Position numbers and translations under genes: made by a program. 64,000 nucleotides of DNA from the IMG/VR virus record IMGVR_UViG_3300031134_000466; one strand, written 5' to 3'. A model generated the notes under the pieces. It was not told the origin of the DNA. It saw only the letters and a program-made list of their open reading frames with translations, and searched no databases. Of this stretch, positions 18,430 to 52,729 are shown piece after piece (within the stretch, counting starts at the first letter, position 1; each line of letters begins with the position of its first letter). Source of the stretch: a virus. Lineage: Duplodnaviria > Heunggongvirae > Uroviricota > Caudoviricetes.

Positions 18430-21147
18430 ATGGCCACCCTCATCGGCGTATCAGGAAAAATTGCGTCAGGTAAAGATTACTTGACTGACAAGCTTGTAAA
18501 CGAACTGAAACGTCTTGGTTTTACCATCGACTACACAGCCTTCGCTGCACCCCTGAAGCAGGAACTCAACGAAATCATCTCTCTGATTCGAGCTTTCCCT
18601 GAACAGGATGAACTGACTCTTTCTTTCTCCATCGCTCGTAATCTGGACATCAACTACGATGATGCTCTTCTGATTGCTACTAATCTGAGAACAGAAGTGC
18701 TTGCAGATGAAACTCTCAACGGTTACTCACGAACAGTCAAAATTCGTGAATCTCTTCAGTATCTTGGTACAGAGATTCGCAGGAAGCAGCGTCCTGAATA
18801 CTGGACTGACTTGTTCTTGAACTTCGTCAACAATTCAGAAACAGATTTCATTTTCGTTTCAGATGCACGTTTTCCTAATGAAATGGACACGGTTGTCGAC
18901 AATCAAGGTGTTGCTCTACGTCTTGACATTCCAGAAGAAGTTCTTGCAGAGCGTCGAAACAAGCGTGACGGCATCAAATACACTGATGAGCAGTTGAATC
19001 ATATCTCAGAAACTGCACTGGATGATTACACCAAATTTGACATGATGATTGGTGTGCAGTTCAACGAACGTGAAATCGTAGAGAATATCCTGAAAAAAGT
19101 TGAACGACTTCAGGAACTTCCTGCAAAAGCTTCTCGCGTCCTGAAAGCCAAAATCGCAGAGCATACACCTTCAGTGTCAGATAAGAAAGATGTTTACCCA
19201 GAGGTGAATTTACCTGAAGGCCAGTACAAAGTGTTGTCTTTGTTTGCAGGTGCAGGTGGATTAGATTTAGGTTTTGAGTTAGCTGGATTAGAAGCAGTTC
19301 ACGGTAAAGAAAAAGTGGACGCTGCTTACAAAGACAAAAAAGCATTTGACGAGCTCCGCAAAGAGAACCTCATTCACACGGTCTACGTAAATGACAACTT
19401 CAAAGATGCAATAGCTTCCTACCGTCAGAACTTTCCTGAAACGTTTATTGACGAACGAGATATCAAAAAAATCAGCAGCTTCCCTGATGCAGACCTTCTG
19501 TTAGGTGGATTCCCTTGCTTCCCTAAAGGAACAGGTGTAGCTACAGAGACAGGTTACAAAAACATTGAAGATGTCGAGAAAGGTGATTTTGTTCTCACTC
19601 ATGAAGGTCGTTACCGTGAAGTAACAGACACCATGACACGCAATGTGAACAAATCAGCCACTCTACATGCTTACGGTTCTCTTCCTTTGGTCTCAACGGT
19701 GAATCATCCTTACTGGGTGAAAGAAACTGTCGATTCTGAACCTAAATGGGTTCATGCTGAGAACATTCAGCCAGGTTGGTTTGTGTCTCATCCAATCAGC
19801 ACATTCAGTACAGATGAAGTAACCGAAAAAGAAGCCAAGTTTGCTTACTTAGCCGGCGTCTTCGCTCAGTGTGGTACAAAAACTTTGAACGACGAGCACA
19901 AGCCAAGCTATCTCACTCCTTACAATGATGAGGAGTTCCTGGCTTTGCTGGCTGAAATTGATGCTGTCTGTTCAAAAGAAGGCAAAAACGTCATCGTCCA
20001 CAGTGAACAGCTGAACAAGATGATGAAATTGTTCGGAACTACCAAATGGAACAAAGTCATTCCTGAAGAGGTCCACCAGAAACCACGAGCTTGGCAGAAA
20101 GCTTTCCTTGACGGCTTCCTGTTCCACAACTCTGACCAGGAAGTGCACAGCAAGAACTTGGCTGTTGGCGTGGCTCGAATTATTCGTAGTTTGAACCCTA
20201 CACAGGATGTTATCGTGTCCTCACCCAAATACAGTTCCTGGATTGTAACTGCAACTGACACTACCGTAGCTCATCATGATGACAACTATGTATGGGTTCC
20301 TGTGGAGCGTTTGCAAGTAAGAAACGAAATGGGAGTACTTCCTGTTTACGATATTACTGTAGCCGAAGACGAATCATTCGTAGCAGATGGATTTGTAGTT
20401 CACAACTGCCCTGGCTTCTCAGCAGCAGGTCTTCGCATGTTAGATGACCCTCGCAACTTCCTGTACCTGCATTTCGTACGAGCTGTTGTTGACGCTCAAC
20501 CAAAGATTTTCGTAGCAGAAAACGTAAAAGGTCTACTCACTCATGGTCAAGGTGAAGCTTTCAACCAGATAGTCGAAGACTTTGCAGCAGCAGGTTACAC
20601 CATCTACTACAAGCTGATGAAAGCAATTCAGCATGGTGTACCTCAGATGAGAGAGCGATTGATTATTGTTGGTGTGCGAAACGACATTGATTTTGAATAC
20701 CAGCATCCTGCTGCCACTCATGGTGAAGGTCTACTTCCATACAAAACTCAAAGAGACGCTTTCTACGATTTGAGGGACCTGAACGATGAACACTACGAAG
20801 GAGACTTCTCTTCTCGCTACCGTTCCAGAAGGTTCAAACTGGACTGGGATGTACCGTCAAAGACCATTTTGGCAACAGGGCGGCACCTGCCTTTGCACCC
20901 TGACGGAGTGCCTCAGGAGAAGCTGGAGCAGGACTTGTGGAGTTTAGACGCTGCAGACCGTAGATTCACTGTAAGAGAAGCTGCACGAATCCAGACATTC
21001 CCTGACTGGTATGATTTCGTGACAACCTCTCGCGGAACAACCAACACAGTCCTGGAGAAACAGTACCGTCAGATAGGTAACGCTGTTCCTGTCGAACTGG
21101 GACGAGTTGTTGCTGAACCTATTGTTCAGTTCCTGAAAAGTCTGTAA
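18430..21147 (+). CDS. Fusion protein: T4 gp1-like dNMP kinase (N-terminal) + DNA (cytosine-5)-methyltransferase interrupted by an intein
   Basis: N-term GVSGKIASGKDY...AAPLKQEL and SDARFPNEMD match dNMP-kinase P-loop and DxR motifs; MTase motif I FAGAGG, motif IV GGFP-C...PGFSAAG (split by intein), ENV (motif VI), QMRER (VIII), GNAVPV (X); one continuous frame. Confidence 0.85.
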   Translation: MATLIGVSGKIASGKDYLTDKLVNELKRLGFTIDYTAFAAPLKQELNEIISLIRAFPEQDELTLSFSIARNLDINYDDALLIATNLRTEVLADETLNGYSRTVKIRESLQYLGTEIRRKQRPEYWTDLFLNFVNNSETDFIFVSDARFPNEMDTVVDNQGVALRLDIPEEVLAERRNKRDGIKYTDEQLNHISETALDDYTKFDMMIGVQFNEREIVENILKKVERLQELPAKASRVLKAKIAEHTPSVSDKKDVYPEVNLPEGQYKVLSLFAGAGGLDLGFELAGLEAVHGKEKVDAAYKDKKAFDELRKENLIHTVYVNDNFKDAIASYRQNFPETFIDERDIKKISSFPDADLLLGGFPCFPKGTGVATETGYKNIEDVEKGDFVLTHEGRYREVTDTMTRNVNKSATLHAYGSLPLVSTVNHPYWVKETVDSEPKWVHAENIQPGWFVSHPISTFSTDEVTEKEAKFAYLAGVFAQCGTKTLNDEHKPSYLTPYNDEEFLALLAEIDAVCSKEGKNVIVHSEQLNKMMKLFGTTKWNKVIPEEVHQKPRAWQKAFLDGFLFHNSDQEVHSKNLAVGVARIIRSLNPTQDVIVSSPKYSSWIVTATDTTVAHHDDNYVWVPVERLQVRNEMGVLPVYDITVAEDESFVADGFVVHNCPGFSAAGLRMLDDPRNFLYLHFVRAVVDAQPKIFVAENVKGLLTHGQGEAFNQIVEDFAAAGYTIYYKLMKAIQHGVPQMRERLIIVGVRNDIDFEYQHPAATHGEGLLPYKTQRDAFYDLRDLNDEHYEGDFSSRYRSRRFKLDWDVPSKTILATGRHLPLHPDGVPQEKLEQDLWSLDAADRRFTVREAARIQTFPDWYDFVTTSRGTTNTVLEKQYRQIGNAVPVELGRVVAEPIVQFLKSL
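19516..20406 (+). mobile_element. Intein (297 aa) with LAGLIDADG homing-endonuclease motifs, inserted at the catalytic Pro-Cys of MTase motif IV
   Basis: Starts with Cys (CFPKGTGVATETG...GDFVL block A), block B TVNH, two dodecapeptide motifs (YLAGVFAQCGT; FLDGFLFHNSD), ends VVHN followed by +1 Cys; excision restores GGFPCPGFSAAG. Confidence 0.8.
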
Positions 21148-26371: not shown

Positions 26372-27676
26372 ATGGGAAAAATCATTGAAGAGACAATGCT
26401 TGTCATGGTTGACACAAAGAACAACAACAACAAGTTCTACCATGTCACATTGGATGATGCTAACGTCGTCACCAAGCGCTGGGGACGTGTAGGAGCTGAA
26501 GGAGCGAGTTCCGTCGAGACAACAGGCAAGATTGGTTACGAGCGAGCCATCAAGTCCAAAGAGAAAAAGGGCTACAAGGTCTCACCTATTGTTAGCACAG
26601 GTGTCACAGTCAAGAGTTCTGTCAACCACCTTGACGAAGTAGCTAAGAAGTTTCTGTCCAAGGACAGCGGAGACAGCCTTATCAGCAACCTCATTGACCG
26701 ACTCATCGCATCAAACCAGCACCAGATTATGGAGCAGTCCGGTGGTATGATTAAGATTACCGACGACGGAACCGTAAAGACCGCTCTCGGTGTTGTTGAC
26801 CTTTGCTCCATCAACTCTGCCCGAGACCTCATTGGTGAGATGCAGAAGAAGAAAACAGGGCAGACCAAGCTCCTGGAAGATTACCTCACCCTCATTCCTC
26901 AGAACATTGGGTACCGTCGTGGTTGGGAAGAGGACTTCCTGAAGACGGAAAACTTTGCCAAGCAGATGGACTTCTTGAAGCAGCTTGAGGATTCTGTGCA
27001 GTGGCGAAACACCACCGCACAGGTCACCACAGATGACGAAGACAAGTTCGACATCGATGCTCACAAAGACCTGTTCCGCATGAACCTTGCGAAGATTTCC
27101 GACAGCGGAAAAGACTTCGACCGTATCAACAAGATGTTTAAAGAAACACGCAACAACATGCACACATCACGTAACCTCAAACTTGTGAACGTGTATGCAG
27201 TGGAAGATGTCAAGGGCAAGGAAGCTTACGAAGCTGCTCAGAAGAAGTATGGAAACGTACGTGAACTCTGGCACGGAACAAAAGCCTCCAATGTTCTCTC
27301 CATTCTCACAAAGGGATTGTTCGTGCCTAACGCAGGTAGCGGTATCCCTGTGACAGGAAGAATGTTCGGTGATGGTGTCTACTTCAGTGACCAGAGCACC
27401 AAAAGCTTGAACTACGCCAACGGTTACTGGGATGGTTCACGCACCAGCCAGAACTGTTTCATGCTTCTGAACGATGTTGTCATGGGTCATGAGTACCGCC
27501 CTCAGCGTTGGGACTACAGCTCTCTCCGTCAGGCACACAAGGGCGTTGGAACTTCAGGTAAGCCTTACCAGTCCATCAGCGTTCGTGGTGGAACCTGTAA
27601 CGTTCGAAACAACGAAATGATTATTTGGAACACTGACCAGGTGGCTGTACGTTACCTCTGCGAATTTGGTAGCTAA
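26372..27676 (+). CDS. Poly(ADP-ribose) polymerase (PARP)-like protein: WGR domain + helical regulatory region + catalytic domain with H-Y-E triad
   Basis: WGR motif KFYHVTL...VVTKRWGRVGAEG...KKGYKV; catalytic LWHGTKASNVLSIL (His), GVYFSDQSTKS (Tyr), YANGY, NEMIIWN (Glu) in PARP order. Confidence 0.85.
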   Translation: MGKIIEETMLVMVDTKNNNNKFYHVTLDDANVVTKRWGRVGAEGASSVETTGKIGYERAIKSKEKKGYKVSPIVSTGVTVKSSVNHLDEVAKKFLSKDSGDSLISNLIDRLIASNQHQIMEQSGGMIKITDDGTVKTALGVVDLCSINSARDLIGEMQKKKTGQTKLLEDYLTLIPQNIGYRRGWEEDFLKTENFAKQMDFLKQLEDSVQWRNTTAQVTTDDEDKFDIDAHKDLFRMNLAKISDSGKDFDRINKMFKETRNNMHTSRNLKLVNVYAVEDVKGKEAYEAAQKKYGNVRELWHGTKASNVLSILTKGLFVPNAGSGIPVTGRMFGDGVYFSDQSTKSLNYANGYWDGSRTSQNCFMLLNDVVMGHEYRPQRWDYSSLRQAHKGVGTSGKPYQSISVRGGTCNVRNNEMIIWNTDQVAVRYLCEFGS

Positions 27677-28538: not shown

Positions 28539-29579
28539 ATGACCACTGCTACTAAATGTGCCAAACCAAAAGGGGTATATTGCCGTTTGCACAACCCTGA
28601 ACCTCGTGGGTATGCTTCTGCATCAGAAGCGTTAAATAAAGCAGAGCAGGACTTCAACAAAGCCAACCCGATCAAATCTTCTTCTCCTGGTGTTTCTTTT
28701 CATAAAAACGGTGAGACTCGCACATTGCACAAAAGTGTTCCAGAGAACATTGCTGACCATATTGCTTTGAATCAAGAACAACTGTCTCACTTGTCAGACA
28801 TGCAGAAGAAAGCTTTGAACGGTTACACCGGCTTTGCTGCAGGTGTTTGCAATAGTGTGTTGTTAGCAAAAGAATTCGCTTATGAGTATTACGAAGATGC
28901 CCCTCTATGGAAAGAAGCCCCAGGAGGAGCGTGTGACTTTGTTTCTCGTGAAGATTTAGTTGACTACATGGAAACAATGGATGGTATCCTTGCTTCCCGC
29001 CAGGAACAATCCCGAGTTCTATACCGTGGTATTCCTATTTACTCAGAACTGCATGACGAGATTGGTAATGGCATAGGTAAAAAGCTGCCTTTCGCTGATG
29101 CTACTGGCTTAGCAGAGGGTTTGAGTGAATATTACAAGCCTGGTACTGTCATTAAGCATGACCATTACTTGTCCACAACAGCATCAGCGTATTATGCAGC
29201 TGACCGTACAGACAATTCCATCGGGACAAAAAAGAGCTATTACGATAGCAATGATGTACCAGTCGGTATTGTCTTTGAGCTGAAAACCAATGCTGGTTTG
29301 GATGTTACAGCTGCAGCTCGTCATCATTCTTATGAACGTGAAGTGGTGTTACCTCGTGAAACTTACTTCAAAGTTGTCAACGTGGACGTGAATCCACAAG
29401 CTTATGACACTGTTTCAGGATTCGATACGCTCAACCATCCTGAGGAGCGAGAGCAGAAAACTTTCACTCGCTTAGCTGCTGTTGTTCAGATGGTCGAAGT
29501 AGACAAAAACGGCAAAGAAATAACAGGTACTGCACCTCATAATCCAGAGAGAAAAATCAGCGACATCATTCCTGGATGA
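28539..29579 (+). CDS. Mono-ADP-ribosyltransferase (R-S-E class) with N-terminal Cys-KP-C-H module
   Basis: N-term KCAKPKGVYCRLH; Arg motif VLYRGI, Ser-Thr motif YLSTTAS, catalytic YEREVVLPRETYFKVV (E-x-E). Confidence 0.7.
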   Translation: MTTATKCAKPKGVYCRLHNPEPRGYASASEALNKAEQDFNKANPIKSSSPGVSFHKNGETRTLHKSVPENIADHIALNQEQLSHLSDMQKKALNGYTGFAAGVCNSVLLAKEFAYEYYEDAPLWKEAPGGACDFVSREDLVDYMETMDGILASRQEQSRVLYRGIPIYSELHDEIGNGIGKKLPFADATGLAEGLSEYYKPGTVIKHDHYLSTTASAYYAADRTDNSIGTKKSYYDSNDVPVGIVFELKTNAGLDVTAAARHHSYEREVVLPRETYFKVVNVDVNPQAYDTVSGFDTLNHPEEREQKTFTRLAAVVQMVEVDKNGKEITGTAPHNPERKISDIIPG

Positions 29580-30499: not shown

Positions 30500-31465
30500 A
30501 TGTGCTACCCCAAACCTGGTCCTCGCTGTTCAGCTCATGCTGCAGTTAAACTGGCGACTGTAAAACTCGCTTCTACCAGCGGTAGTCAAGATTTTGCCGA
30601 GTACTTAGCTCATCAGGAGCGTCTTGAAGAAGCTCAGCTGGAGTATGACATCACGCCAGCAGGTTTGAAAGATTTACAGGATTTAGTGGGTCAACGAAAT
30701 GACCCTGACGCTGAGCTCCGTTATTCCAAAGCTAAAGCCCTGAGAGCAAAGAAGTTGGCTTTGTTGCATGAAGACCAGAAACAAGAGCAAGGTCATACTC
30801 TTGCAAGGGTTCAAGGGGTAAATGAAGATTTTTGTTCTGATGAAATTGTTCGTTCTAACAAAGATGCTGGAATCACATCCGCAGCTTTAGTAGCTGAAGC
30901 TGAACCGTGGTTTAATCAGTTGAACGATGATGAACTTTCTCAAATGCACTGGATGACCGACTATGGTTCAATGGAAGCTAATACGCACATCGCAGGAACC
31001 AATGACCATAAACGTTTTGGTGGTCTATTCTCTGCAGAGAACTTGGAATCTCGTATGGTTCAAGTTGACTCGGCTTTGAGTAAGTTTGAGTCACATCATG
31101 ATGAAGTTGTCTACAGGGGCTTTCGTGAAGGCTCTCTTCCCTCTGCTATGGCAAACAACTACCGGGTATCAGATGATGTGAAGCAAGCTGCAGTTCTGAA
31201 ATCTTTCACCGTAGGTGAAGTCTACAAGTCTGATTTCTACATGCCAACTTCTGTACAGCCTGAAGAGGCTGCTCGTTTTGCTGATTTCGGTTGCGTCATG
31301 GAAATCAAAACCCGCAAAGCTGCTCCTGTATCTGCCATTTCTGAAGTTCCCCGTGAGTCAGAAAAACTGATTGGTCGTAACAGTGAATTCAAAGTCGTGG
31401 CAATCAAAGAGAACATCATGTACGGCATTAAGAGAATGACTGTTGTTCAGTTAGAGCAACTCTAA
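30500..31465 (+). CDS. Mono-ADP-ribosyltransferase (R-S-E class) with N-terminal MCYPKPGPRCSAHA module
   Basis: Arg motif VVYRGF, Ser-Thr motif YMPTSV, catalytic PRESEKLIGRNSEFKVV (E-x-E). Confidence 0.7.
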   Translation: MCYPKPGPRCSAHAAVKLATVKLASTSGSQDFAEYLAHQERLEEAQLEYDITPAGLKDLQDLVGQRNDPDAELRYSKAKALRAKKLALLHEDQKQEQGHTLARVQGVNEDFCSDEIVRSNKDAGITSAALVAEAEPWFNQLNDDELSQMHWMTDYGSMEANTHIAGTNDHKRFGGLFSAENLESRMVQVDSALSKFESHHDEVVYRGFREGSLPSAMANNYRVSDDVKQAAVLKSFTVGEVYKSDFYMPTSVQPEEAARFADFGCVMEIKTRKAAPVSAISEVPRESEKLIGRNSEFKVVAIKENIMYGIKRMTVVQLEQL

Positions 31466-46365: not shown

Positions 46366-47154
46366 ATGATGACTACAAACAGTTTCCAGAAAAAAGCCAT
46401 TCGTGAACGAATGAAGCACACTGGTGAACCGTACCTCGAAGCTTCCCGCCAGCTTTATGGAACCTCTGACAAGTTTCCTACTCCATGGTCTGAACTCAAT
46501 AAAGTTTTGGACGGTGGACTAAGAAAAGGTTCAGTTACTCTTCTTGGCTCTGGACCAGGAGGAGGTGCCACAAGCACAGCTATCAGCATCGCAGAAGGTG
46601 CTAAAAATAAGAGAGCTTTGTATGTTTCCTCGGAAATCTATGGACAAGAATTTCGCACTTTGGACAGTAAGCGGGATGATGATTCTTCTGACCTTATTTT
46701 CATCTACATCGGGCGAGAACAGTTTGGTAACTTAGTCGGCTCTTTGAAAGGGATGGTGTCATCAGTACATGACATCAAAGATGAACCTGATGTCGAGCTT
46801 ATTGTTATTGACTCTTTCGACTTTCTGACTCCTGAACTGCCTACGGTCCAAGAAGCAGCTGCTATGTCTGCTCAAATTAAGAAAATGGCTATCGAGCTTA
46901 ACCTTCCAGTAGTTCTTCTTACTCATTTGAGTACACAATCTGCACACGAAAAAAACCACTTCAGACATTCTTCTGATTTGGTCCAAGACTCTGATGTAAT
47001 ACTCACCTCTCATGTTGAAGGAGAGGGTGTCAACTTAGTTGTTCGCAAAAACAGATTCGGGGACTACGGTCAAAAGATTGCTTTAGATTGGGACAAAAAG
47101 AACTGCTTAATGACATCGAAAAAGTCTACTAATAACTCCTCAGAAACCAACTGA
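46366..47154 (+). CDS. DnaB-helicase C-terminal-domain-like (RecA-fold) protein with degenerate Walker A
   Basis: LNKVLDGGLRKGSVTLLGSGPGGGATS (Walker A without Lys), Walker B ELIVIDSFDFL, LPVVLLTHLS, and DnaB hallmark VVRKNRFGDYGQKIALDWD; no N-terminal DnaB domain. Confidence 0.55.
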   Translation: MMTTNSFQKKAIRERMKHTGEPYLEASRQLYGTSDKFPTPWSELNKVLDGGLRKGSVTLLGSGPGGGATSTAISIAEGAKNKRALYVSSEIYGQEFRTLDSKRDDDSSDLIFIYIGREQFGNLVGSLKGMVSSVHDIKDEPDVELIVIDSFDFLTPELPTVQEAAAMSAQIKKMAIELNLPVVLLTHLSTQSAHEKNHFRHSSDLVQDSDVILTSHVEGEGVNLVVRKNRFGDYGQKIALDWDKKNCLMTSKKSTNNSSETN

Positions 47155-51757: not shown

Positions 51758-52729
51758 TTAAATTTCTCGCAGCTGCACAATTGTCAGTTCAGTTGCTTCA
51801 CCTTTTTTATTGACCCTTTTGACTTTCACATCATTAGCAACAACTTCGAATTTTGCACCACGAGGAATGATGAACTCATACTCTCTTGGACCTTGCGATG
51901 AAATAGCTGTGATTGGGGCTCCACTTTTTGTAAGAATCTGTAAAGAAACATTGATGTTGTCTTTGGAAGGTAAATCTTGAGGATTCAAACTTGTCGATAA
52001 GAAGAATTTAGGTTCGTAAGTGCTACCAACAGGGAAATGTTTGTCGAGGTTTTGAGCGTCATCACTTGAATGATATCCTTTTTCATCATAAAGATGATGA
52101 CGGCGGTAAACCATCACGCCTTCTTCTGCTGGTTCGTGTTTAGCAAAAGCATCATCCAGGATAGTTACAGCTGCATCCAACGTTTCAGGTGCAACATTTT
52201 TTGCGTACGGATTTGTTGAAGCTGAAAGATGGCCGTTGATGTCAGCATAGCCATCTTCTGAATACCAGCGAAGAGTAGCTATTTCAGTATCATCCAGTTT
52301 GGCACTCCAGTTTTGGGAATCTGCCATGCTGTTCAACAGGTCAGCATGTTTGTAATGCATCTCTTCAAGAGTGTCACCAGTTTCGAAAAACGTCGGAGAA
52401 GTGTAAGCAGCTTTTTGTGCTTTTTTGTGGGTGATGACTTTACGATCCGCAACAGCAGCTAATCTTCTGGCTCGTTCTTGAGAAAGCGCTTCGTATTCTT
52501 CTGCATGCCATTCCTGCGTTGGATTCTTTTTGATCTGTCTTTCCAAAGACTTTAGATAAGCTGGTGTTAGTTTGTACTCTGCTTCAGCTTTTCTTCTTAC
52601 CGCTATTAGCTTCTCAAGCTCTGGGTCTTTGCGGTTGTCCATGAAAGCACTGAGAACCGCTTGATGAGCTTTAGCGTAGGTGGCTGCAGCATGAGCTGAA
52701 CAACGGGGACCAGGTTTTGGGTAACACAT
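51758..52729 (-). CDS. Mono-ADP-ribosyltransferase (R-S-E class) with N-terminal MCYPKPGPRCSAHA module
   Basis: Arg motif MVYRRH, classic STS motif FLSTSLN, catalytic PREYEFIIPRGAKFEVV (E-x-E); N-terminal 100 aa paralogous to ORF 30500. Confidence 0.7.
   Translation of the reverse strand: MCYPKPGPRCSAHAAATYAKAHQAVLSAFMDNRKDPELEKLIAVRRKAEAEYKLTPAYLKSLERQIKKNPTQEWHAEEYEALSQERARRLAAVADRKVITHKKAQKAAYTSPTFFETGDTLEEMHYKHADLLNSMADSQNWSAKLDDTEIATLRWYSEDGYADINGHLSASTNPYAKNVAPETLDAAVTILDDAFAKHEPAEEGVMVYRRHHLYDEKGYHSSDDAQNLDKHFPVGSTYEPKFFLSTSLNPQDLPSKDNINVSLQILTKSGAPITAISSQGPREYEFIIPRGAKFEVVANDVKVKRVNKKGEATELTIVQLREI

Follow-up and report, generated by a model that had tools for sequence, protein, structure and literature searches.

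A class-1 intein with a probably nuclease-dead LAGLIDADG-fold centre interrupts the catalytic loop of a C5 DNA methyltransferase fused to a kinase domain, from what looks like a very large phage

LAGLIDADG inteins in the N6/N4 DNA methylases of mycobacteriophages and actinobacteriophages are well described (PMC5050341; PMC9957025), and in our literature searches combining inteins with cytosine methyltransferases only a 2025 survey of actinophages named C-5 methylase (IPR001525) as an intein host (bioRxiv 10.1101/2025.01.02.630785). Here we analysed an insert at positions 19516 to 20406 of a 64,000-nucleotide (nt) stretch of viral DNA (IMG/VR record IMGVR_UViG_3300031134_000466, Caudoviricetes), called the window below, in which it interrupts the gene of a C5 DNA methyltransferase fused to a kinase domain. 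All positions are those of the window, and intein residues are counted from Cys1. We consider it likely that the insert is a class-1 intein of canonical type which has become fixed within the methyltransferase's catalytic loop and is nuclease-dead at its centre, and that it belongs to a very large phage genome. As with the actinobacteriophage N6/N4 methylases, this is a phage methyltransferase invaded by a LAGLIDADG-type intein with a patchy distribution among related phages, but the actinobacteriophage hosts belong to the PF01555 superfamily, have another insertion site, and carry inteins described as actively transferring (PMC5050341; PMC9957025).

Two other groups of described elements are relevant for comparison. 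The VMA inteins including PI-SceI (7qst, 7qsu, 1vde), as well as PI-PfuI (1dq3) and PI-TkoII (2cw7), share with the window intein a Hint horseshoe with a LAGLIDADG domain at a conserved position, whereas they are only 11-17% identical to it, possess both acidic residues and endonuclease activity, and measure 360–540 amino acids (aa) rather than 297 aa. The HO and WHO elements of yeasts (PMC7282813) are intein-derived modules which have persisted without splicing, and are a precedent for the kinase-intein fusions and the stand-alone intein open reading frame (ORF) found in relatives of the window; unlike those relatives, where constraint is relaxed, HO and WHO have kept an active nuclease, and the window copy differs from both in still being a normal intein in an intact host gene.

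The insert and its host enzyme

The precursor gene and its parts, with the evidence for each in brackets, are as follows:

18430..21147, + strand: precursor ORF of 905 aa and 102.9 kDa, with a kinase-like domain followed by a C5 methyltransferase split by the intein (single ORF; Pfam and NCBIfam matches)
18430..19134, + strand: N-terminal P-loop deoxynucleoside monophosphate (dNMP) kinase-like domain, GKIASGKD near its start (PF21448 DNMK, 30.6 bits, cut-off 27.1; partial PF04275 match)
19135..19515, + strand: N-extein, methyltransferase linker and motifs I to IV, with motif I LFAGAGGLDLGF at 19240-19275 and motif IV GGFP at 19504-19515 (sequence reading; PF00145; alignment with homologue P0002)
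19516..20406, + strand: predicted class-1 intein of 297 aa and 33.5 kDa (Hint_2, Intein_splicing and TIGR01443; predicted local distance difference test (pLDDT) 90.3; Foldseek 7qst and 7qsu, E ~1e-15)
19516..19800, + strand: Hint N-terminal lobe, with block A Cys1 at 19516-19518 and block B T61-V-N-H64 at 19696-19707 (alignment; 2lwy match; beta-strand pattern of the model)
19801..20235, + strand: trimmed LAGLIDADG-fold centre of ~145 aa, with motif 1 YLAGVFAQCGT at 19846-19878 (Cys119 for Asp) and motif 2 FLDGFLFHNSD at 20104-20136 (Asn205 for Asp) (hhalign; fold matches; column census)
20236..20406, + strand: Hint C-terminal lobe, with block F VYDITV (Asp279 at 20350-20352) and block G His296-Asn297 at 20401-20406 (TIGR01443 E=2.5e-8; 7cfv match)
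20407..20409, + strand: Cys+1, the splice-junction nucleophile and motif IV catalytic cysteine of the methyltransferase (sequence reading; GGFPCPGFS in P0002)
20407..21147, + strand: C-extein with motifs IV (CPGFS), VI (ENV, 20518-20526) and VIII (QMRER, 20644-20658), the target-recognition region and motif X (GNAVP, 21076-21090) (PF00145, residues 660-899 matching profile positions 71-323; ratio of non-synonymous to synonymous substitution rates, dN/dS)

The insert consists of 891 nt or 297 codons, is in frame and free of stop codons, and lies within one ORF. The codons GGT GGA TTC CCT (GGFP) run up to 19515 and are followed by the TGC of Cys1, while at the 3' junction CAC AAC (His-Asn), with the terminal Asn codon at 20404-20406, is followed by TGC CCT GGC TTC TCA (CPGFS), giving the protein junctions LLLGGFP/CFPKGTG and FVVHN/CPGFSAAG (slashes mark splice junctions throughout). 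The first-pass annotation of the window, which was made from the sequence alone, had placed a LAGLIDADG intein exactly at the motif IV Pro-Cys, with coordinates that were correct to the base and in frame, and the residues it had quoted (the TVNH of block B, both LAGLIDADG-like motifs, and HN followed by Cys) are all present.

The host protein contains the C5 methyltransferase motifs I (FxGxG), IV (PC), VI (ENV), VIII (QxRxR) and X (GNxVP), and the precursor scored above the cut-off with both PF00145 (DNA_methylase, E=5.6e-60, 203.9 bits, cut-off 22), in two stretches broken at profile positions 70/71, and TIGR00675 (dcm, 180.6 bits, cut-off 100.65). When the insert was removed in silico, the spliced protein gave one unbroken PF00145 match (residues 266-602 to profile positions 1-323 of 324, E=1.2e-65). 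The intein-free homologue P0002 (609 aa), which shares its gene neighbourhood with the window locus, reads GGFPCPGFSAAG and leaves a clean 297-column gap in the alignment; the uninterrupted target site is GGATTCCCT/TGCCCTGGC, likewise written GGTGGATTCCCT/TGCCCTGGCTTCTCA. In-silico excision therefore restores the catalytic loop, as had been proposed. The fusion of kinase and methyltransferase was seen only in the clade of the window and in P0002, and the kinase domain is a stand-alone protein of 223–238 aa in more than 50 related clusters. This N-terminal P-loop domain is of the dNMP-kinase type seen in T4 gp1.

The Hint profile check suggested in the first-pass annotation was run and gave three matches to the insert: Hint_2 (E=3.6e-8, and E=7.6e-8 where it falls between the two methylase stretches), Intein_splicing (E=3.1e-7, with 30.8 bits under the cut-off of 35.8), and TIGR01443 (intein_Cterm), which was over its cut-off of 15.6 bits with E=4.8e-9 for the whole protein and E=2.5e-8 for the insert alone. 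Reading of the sequence and alignment with nine other inteins identified all class-1 residues: Cys1, T61/H64, D279, H296-N297 and Cys+1. Since a sequence search of the PDB chains gave only weak, partial intein matches (best E=0.03, 2lwy), fold comparison was needed. The structure model of the intein, built on ten aligned inteins, was confident (pLDDT as listed above, predicted template modelling score 0.84), and its best Foldseek matches in the PDB were the endonuclease-bearing PhoVMA and TliVMA inteins (E ~1e-15, template modelling score 0.68–0.71), followed by PI-SceI, PI-TkoII and PI-PfuI, while mini-inteins fitted the two Hint lobes and I-DmoI fitted the centre. On the grounds of sequence and model, the prediction of a class-1 intein is confirmed and chance is excluded, and the assignment as LAGLIDADG-type is upheld by the profiles and model together with the intein-free allele and the restored methylase match.

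Bacterial intein-like (BIL) domains are Hint domains in the variable region of non-conserved proteins and mostly lack a +1 nucleophile and an endonuclease domain. That the insert is such a domain, or otherwise a free-standing or frameshifted endonuclease gene, has next to no probability: the weak 2lwy match is indeed to a BIL domain, but reflects only the shared Hint fold, whereas the insert is in frame without a stop or internal start signal, has a Hint lobe on either side of its centre, and has a terminal HN with Cys+1 next to it, at a catalytic site that is conserved and also known from an intein-free allele, which are features of an intein and not of a BIL domain. We rejected the BIL domain on the conserved catalytic site, the Cys+1 and the central LAGLIDADG-fold domain, and the in-frame insert, the Hint lobes, the Cys+1 and the intein-free allele already refute a non-intein origin as a whole.

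No convincing internal promoter or terminator was found within the intein, and the antisense ORF at 19920..20261 gave no family match. A near-identity DNA search of 50,697 phage records gave no match, nor did a scan of IMG/VR for close relatives of the whole protein, and we found no further inteins in the window. The GC content of the intein matches that of the window (0.446 vs 0.452), and hence there is no sign of recent import.

In a canonical class-1 pathway, the 102.9-kDa precursor would be translated with its motif IV split (GGFP, intein, CPGFS) and would be unable to methylate. Cys1 would then undergo an N-S acyl shift, aided by T61 and H64 of block B, the N-extein would pass to Cys+1 by trans-thioesterification, and cyclisation of Asn297, with His296 and Asp279, would free the 33.5-kDa intein, after which an S-N shift would yield a 69.4-kDa enzyme containing GGFPCPGFS. 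As Cys+1 is the motif IV cysteine, the nucleophile of the splice junction is also that of methyl transfer, and the same residue would later attack C6 of the cytosine. The statement in the first-pass annotation that the methyltransferase becomes active only after splicing is a reasonable expectation.

Same-site inteins in other methyltransferases

We searched 1.84 billion representative proteins with a profile, giving 2,354 matches at E<=1e-30, and took a census of insertion sites in the 147 closest representatives, some with more than one intein. From these 147 proteins, 97 inteins sit between Pro and Cys-x-x-(hydrophobic)-Ser/Thr, which is the PC motif of the methyltransferase, with a downstream ENV in most proteins, and at least eight more same-site examples were present in IMG/VR. 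Cultured phages also have inteins at this site, namely Erwinia phage vB_EamM_Yoloswag (gp43, L009 1381-3489, with junctions SPP/CFLKD...VVHN/CKGFS), Yersinia phage fHe-Yen9-02 (gp275, L011 499-2577) and Lactobacillus phage Nyseid (L010 472-2505), where the genes are annotated as 'modification methylase', 'hypothetical protein' or 'DNA-cytosine methyltransferase', without an intein label. From these numbers it is clear that, in sequence space, inteins in the active site of C5 methyltransferases are not uncommon, contrary to what the first-pass annotation had stated. Since same-site inteins are abundant and C-5 methylase is already a listed host, we count the kind as known, and the window copy is a divergent member of a common but little-annotated intein family.

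The same-site inteins are the nearest relatives of the window intein outside its own clade (phmmer E ~1e-28). The three from cultured phages share the insertion point xxP/C...HN/C(Q, K or T)xxS with Cys1 and Cys+1, and the inteins of phage C5 methyltransferases have homologous Hint lobes (GYKNIEDxxxGDFVLTH) and a homologous centre. In contrast, the canonical same-site inteins are only 24–28% identical to the window intein, and have both catalytic Asp residues (92/97), longer beta-hairpins and a Pfam LAGLIDADG_3 match, all three of which the window intein lacks, while the host enzyme of the window differs in its fusion to a kinase domain. A second recurrent intein site lies directly after methyltransferase motif VI (WENV/CF...VVHN/CGAFS) in P0018, P0026 and P0031, and in P0026 the PC site carries an intein as well.

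The central domain and selection along the gene

The centre of the intein aligned with the endonuclease domains of canonical C5-methyltransferase inteins in hhalign (93.5% probability, E=2.3e-7), with YLAGVFAQCGT pairing with YVLGRYIADGW and FLDGFLFHNSD with FVDGYMDGDGH, and both this alignment and the Foldseek matches to PI-SceI, PI-PfuI and I-DmoI revealed a two-fold pseudo-symmetric alpha/beta LAGLIDADG fold within the Hint domain. At the columns of the catalytic aspartates, which hold Asp in 92/97 and 96/97 of the same-site inteins, respectively, the window has Cys119 and Asn205. Both positions have Asp in 92 of these 97 inteins, four lack one and a single intein lacks both, whereas all members of the window's clade lack both and have Cys and Asn/Ser instead, without a conserved acidic substitute in the clade. 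Throughout this clade the beta-hairpins following each motif are shorter than in the canonical relatives. The LAGLIDADG profile check proposed in the first-pass annotation was negative, as no Pfam LAGLIDADG family matched the precursor at E<0.1, while P0006 and P0007 do carry PF14528. Of the two LAGLIDADG-like motifs noticed at first, the fold therefore stands, but the defining acidic residues do not, and a working endonuclease is improbable: going by its sequence, the central domain has a LAGLIDADG fold but has probably lost nuclease activity. With both metal-binding aspartates gone from this shortened fold, homing is most likely no longer possible, and the element would be inherited vertically.

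For selection analysis we relied on close pairs, as synonymous sites are saturated between deep lineages and pairwise dN/dS is there unusable for fine inference; unsaturated comparisons were available with L012 (a 789-kb contig) and L068, at a synonymous distance of 0.3–0.5. Purifying selection was found on the exteins and the intein alike, with dN/dS of 0.004–0.011 for the C-extein, 0.05–0.09 for the N-extein, 0.06–0.09 for the kinase domain, 0.027–0.042 for the whole intein and 0.019–0.045 for its endonuclease-like centre, where one comparison gave 28 synonymous vs 4 non-synonymous changes (P ~1e-15 under neutrality). The strong constraint on the exteins indicates that the methyltransferase is in use, which would require splicing and is thus indirect support for it. 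Between the window and L012 the synonymous distance (dS) is uneven along the gene, with 0.17 for the kinase vs 0.34–0.61 for the methyltransferase and intein parts, which suggests within-gene recombination among close relatives.

Strong purifying selection on the central domain of an intein is usually taken as a sign of ongoing homing, and together with the invariance of Gln118-Cys119 across the clade and the coexistence of intein-free and intein-bearing alleles among relatives, this could be read as a mobile intein with an active homing endonuclease using non-canonical active-site residues. We think this improbable, with both metal-binding Asp residues replaced (Cys119, and Asn205 or Ser in relatives) without a conserved acidic substitute, the DNA-contacting beta-hairpins shortened, and the divergence and GC content of the intein resembling those of the host gene. 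We know of no active LAGLIDADG enzyme in which both acidic residues are missing.

The extein values also bear on the opposite case, in which the insert has lost splicing, leaving the methyltransferase disrupted for good and only the kinase domain at work, with the locus heading towards a state without methyltransferase. Relatives show this very decay series (see below), and splicing of the window intein is itself a deduction, but its class-1 splicing residues are all intact, and a C-extein dN/dS of 0.004–0.011 at such synonymous distances is incompatible with a dead enzyme, making this very improbable.

Related loci and genome context

Flanked by a MazG/PRA-PH gene on one side and a convergent gene for an S26 signal peptidase on the other, the locus was found in four states: the kinase alone, kinase and methyltransferase without intein (P0002), kinase and methyltransferase with intein (window, L012, L068), and the intein without methyltransferase. 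The last of these was represented by L005 5466-6816, L001 5001-6689, L006 58-1668, L002 5001-6662 and L070-L072 4287-5948, either as a stand-alone ORF beside a frameshifted methyltransferase pseudogene (L005) or as a direct fusion to the kinase. L005 encodes its kinase separately. Of its N-extein a pseudogene is left, in which the peptides FSVFSLFAGAGGLD and YQRNFTPTFIDQRDIKK can be recognised in different frames, separated by stops, and the C-extein has a stop directly after Cys-Pro, followed by a remnant of ~25 nt and a deletion, while the 297 codons of the intein are intact with all splicing residues kept. If 3–5 disabling lesions per 380 nt were spread evenly, an 891-nt stretch would escape them with a probability of ~1e-3 to 1e-5.

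The kinase fusions differ in the state of their splicing residues. P0004 consists of kinase, intein and Cys-Ser-stop with these residues intact, whereas P0003 cannot splice because of Arg at position 1, Asn for the block B His and a terminal His-Cys, and P0005 cannot do so either because its position 1 is Gly or deleted and the His-Asn is missing. In the P0005 clade, comprising four close sequences of which two are on contigs of 879 and 883 kb, dN/dS was 0.11–0.48 for the intein-derived part vs <=0.1 for the kinase, and the best-populated pair had 9 synonymous and 9 non-synonymous changes (P=0.007 vs neutrality), so constraint on the intein-derived part is relaxed yet not absent. L079, a relative with ~80% nucleotide identity, shows no remnant whatsoever. 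Because the intein served as the query in the search that found the intein-only loci, these are subject to ascertainment bias, and we therefore rejected as evidence of selection the observation that deletions in relatives always spare the intein.

Several of these observations weigh against a merely spliced, nuclease-dead passenger. Relatives keep the intein after loss of the methyltransferase, which splicing alone does not explain; dN/dS of the supposedly dead centre falls below what a decaying passenger domain would be expected to show, so that this centre must either be needed for folding of the intein or have a function of its own; and the invariant Gln118-Cys119 hints at a role kept by the former active site. 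Splicing and methylation are inferred, as are the inactivity of the precursor and the loss of the nuclease, while the in-frame insertion, the fold, the splicing residues, the intein-free allele and the purifying selection on exteins and intein were observed.

WhiA-type proteins are nuclease-dead LAGLIDADG DNA-binding proteins, and thus a precedent for persistence without cleavage (review PMC3384342). The Hint and LAGLIDADG-like module may have a role of its own and be kept for it, for instance as a nuclease-dead scaffold that binds specific DNA sequences, whether or not it is also a passively spliced passenger. In favour of this are the dN/dS of the endonuclease-like domain (0.02–0.045), as low as that of the Hint lobes and the kinase, the intact intein ORF of L005 beside an N-extein with several frameshifts and stops and a truncated C-extein, the four lineages that keep the intein without methyltransferase, among them P0003 and P0005 without splicing residues, and dN/dS still below 1 in the P0005 clade. 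However, loci where a deletion removed the intein are counted as 'empty', the module is dispensable, as the kinase and S26 peptidase genes directly adjoin each other in many close relatives, constraint in the splicing-dead clade is clearly relaxed, and the need to fold the whole intein for splicing can explain the low dN/dS in the window's clade. Given the intein-based discovery, the absence of a remnant in L079 and the lack of a function that can be named, an own function is a minority view and on balance unlikely. Were it correct, the intein of this lineage of very large (0.7–0.9 Mb) phage-like genomes would have persisted beyond the loss of its endonuclease activity and even, in several relatives, of the host gene, having been kept for a role in DNA binding or regulation, which we regard as doubtful. 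Equally tentatively, the module could then be said to take three forms: in the window it would still splice as an intein, in L005 it would have its own ORF, and in the lineages of P0003 and P0005 it would have become a fixed C-terminal part of the dNMP kinase. The domestication of HO would thereby have a counterpart in a virus of prokaryotes.

The likely reading of a class-1 intein past homing includes its origin from a very large phage. The genes in the window include those for an SNF2 helicase, a RecE-like/DnaQ exonuclease fusion, the beta subunit of ribonucleotide reductase, MazG, NT5C, PARP/WGR, three ADP-ribosyltransferases, two T4-type RNA ligases, HSP70 and NAD (nicotinamide adenine dinucleotide) synthetases, and close relatives are on contigs of 0.5–1.0 Mb (L012/L069 789 kb, L071 879 kb, L072 883 kb, L079 858 kb, L082 532 kb), the longest contig of cluster P0189 measuring 1,000,729 nt. 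No structural genes turned up among the window genes, although capsid and terminase genes were not specifically examined, and scans of the window for tRNAs and Rfam families gave no match. Judging by gene content and contig sizes, the source genome of the window looks like that of a very large phage; if the window and its relatives do come from phages, these are, to our knowledge, at or beyond the largest phage sizes known.

Two further observations were made in the window. The ADP-ribosylation toolkit is unusually rich, with four genes within 26 kb:

26372-27676: WGR-PARP protein
28539-29579: ADPrib_exo_Tox paralogue
30500-31465: ADPrib_exo_Tox paralogue
51758-52729, - strand: ADPrib_exo_Tox paralogue

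One of the three paralogues is a weak match (E=4.9e-4, 19.9 bits, under the Pfam cut-off of 23.4). The ORF at 46366-47154 (262 aa) matches just the C-terminal third of DnaB-like helicase profiles and may be a fragment or a split gene, without a Hint domain nearby.

A phage methyltransferase would most plausibly shield phage DNA from host restriction. The window provides a textbook case of an intein on a catalytic nucleophile, with one +1 cysteine serving both splicing and methyl transfer, and methylome predictions for such phages hinge on splicing. The intein family of C5 methyltransferases is large and almost never annotated, with genes of cultured phages labelled 'hypothetical protein' or plain methylase, and annotators should expect inserts of 300–400 aa at the PC motif of phage cytosine methylases. 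What is unusual here is an endonuclease domain which looks dead yet is strongly conserved; together with the decay series from empty site through methyltransferase and methyltransferase with intein to intein only, this constrained, nuclease-dead centre makes the locus a natural system for studying how inteins persist after the loss of homing.

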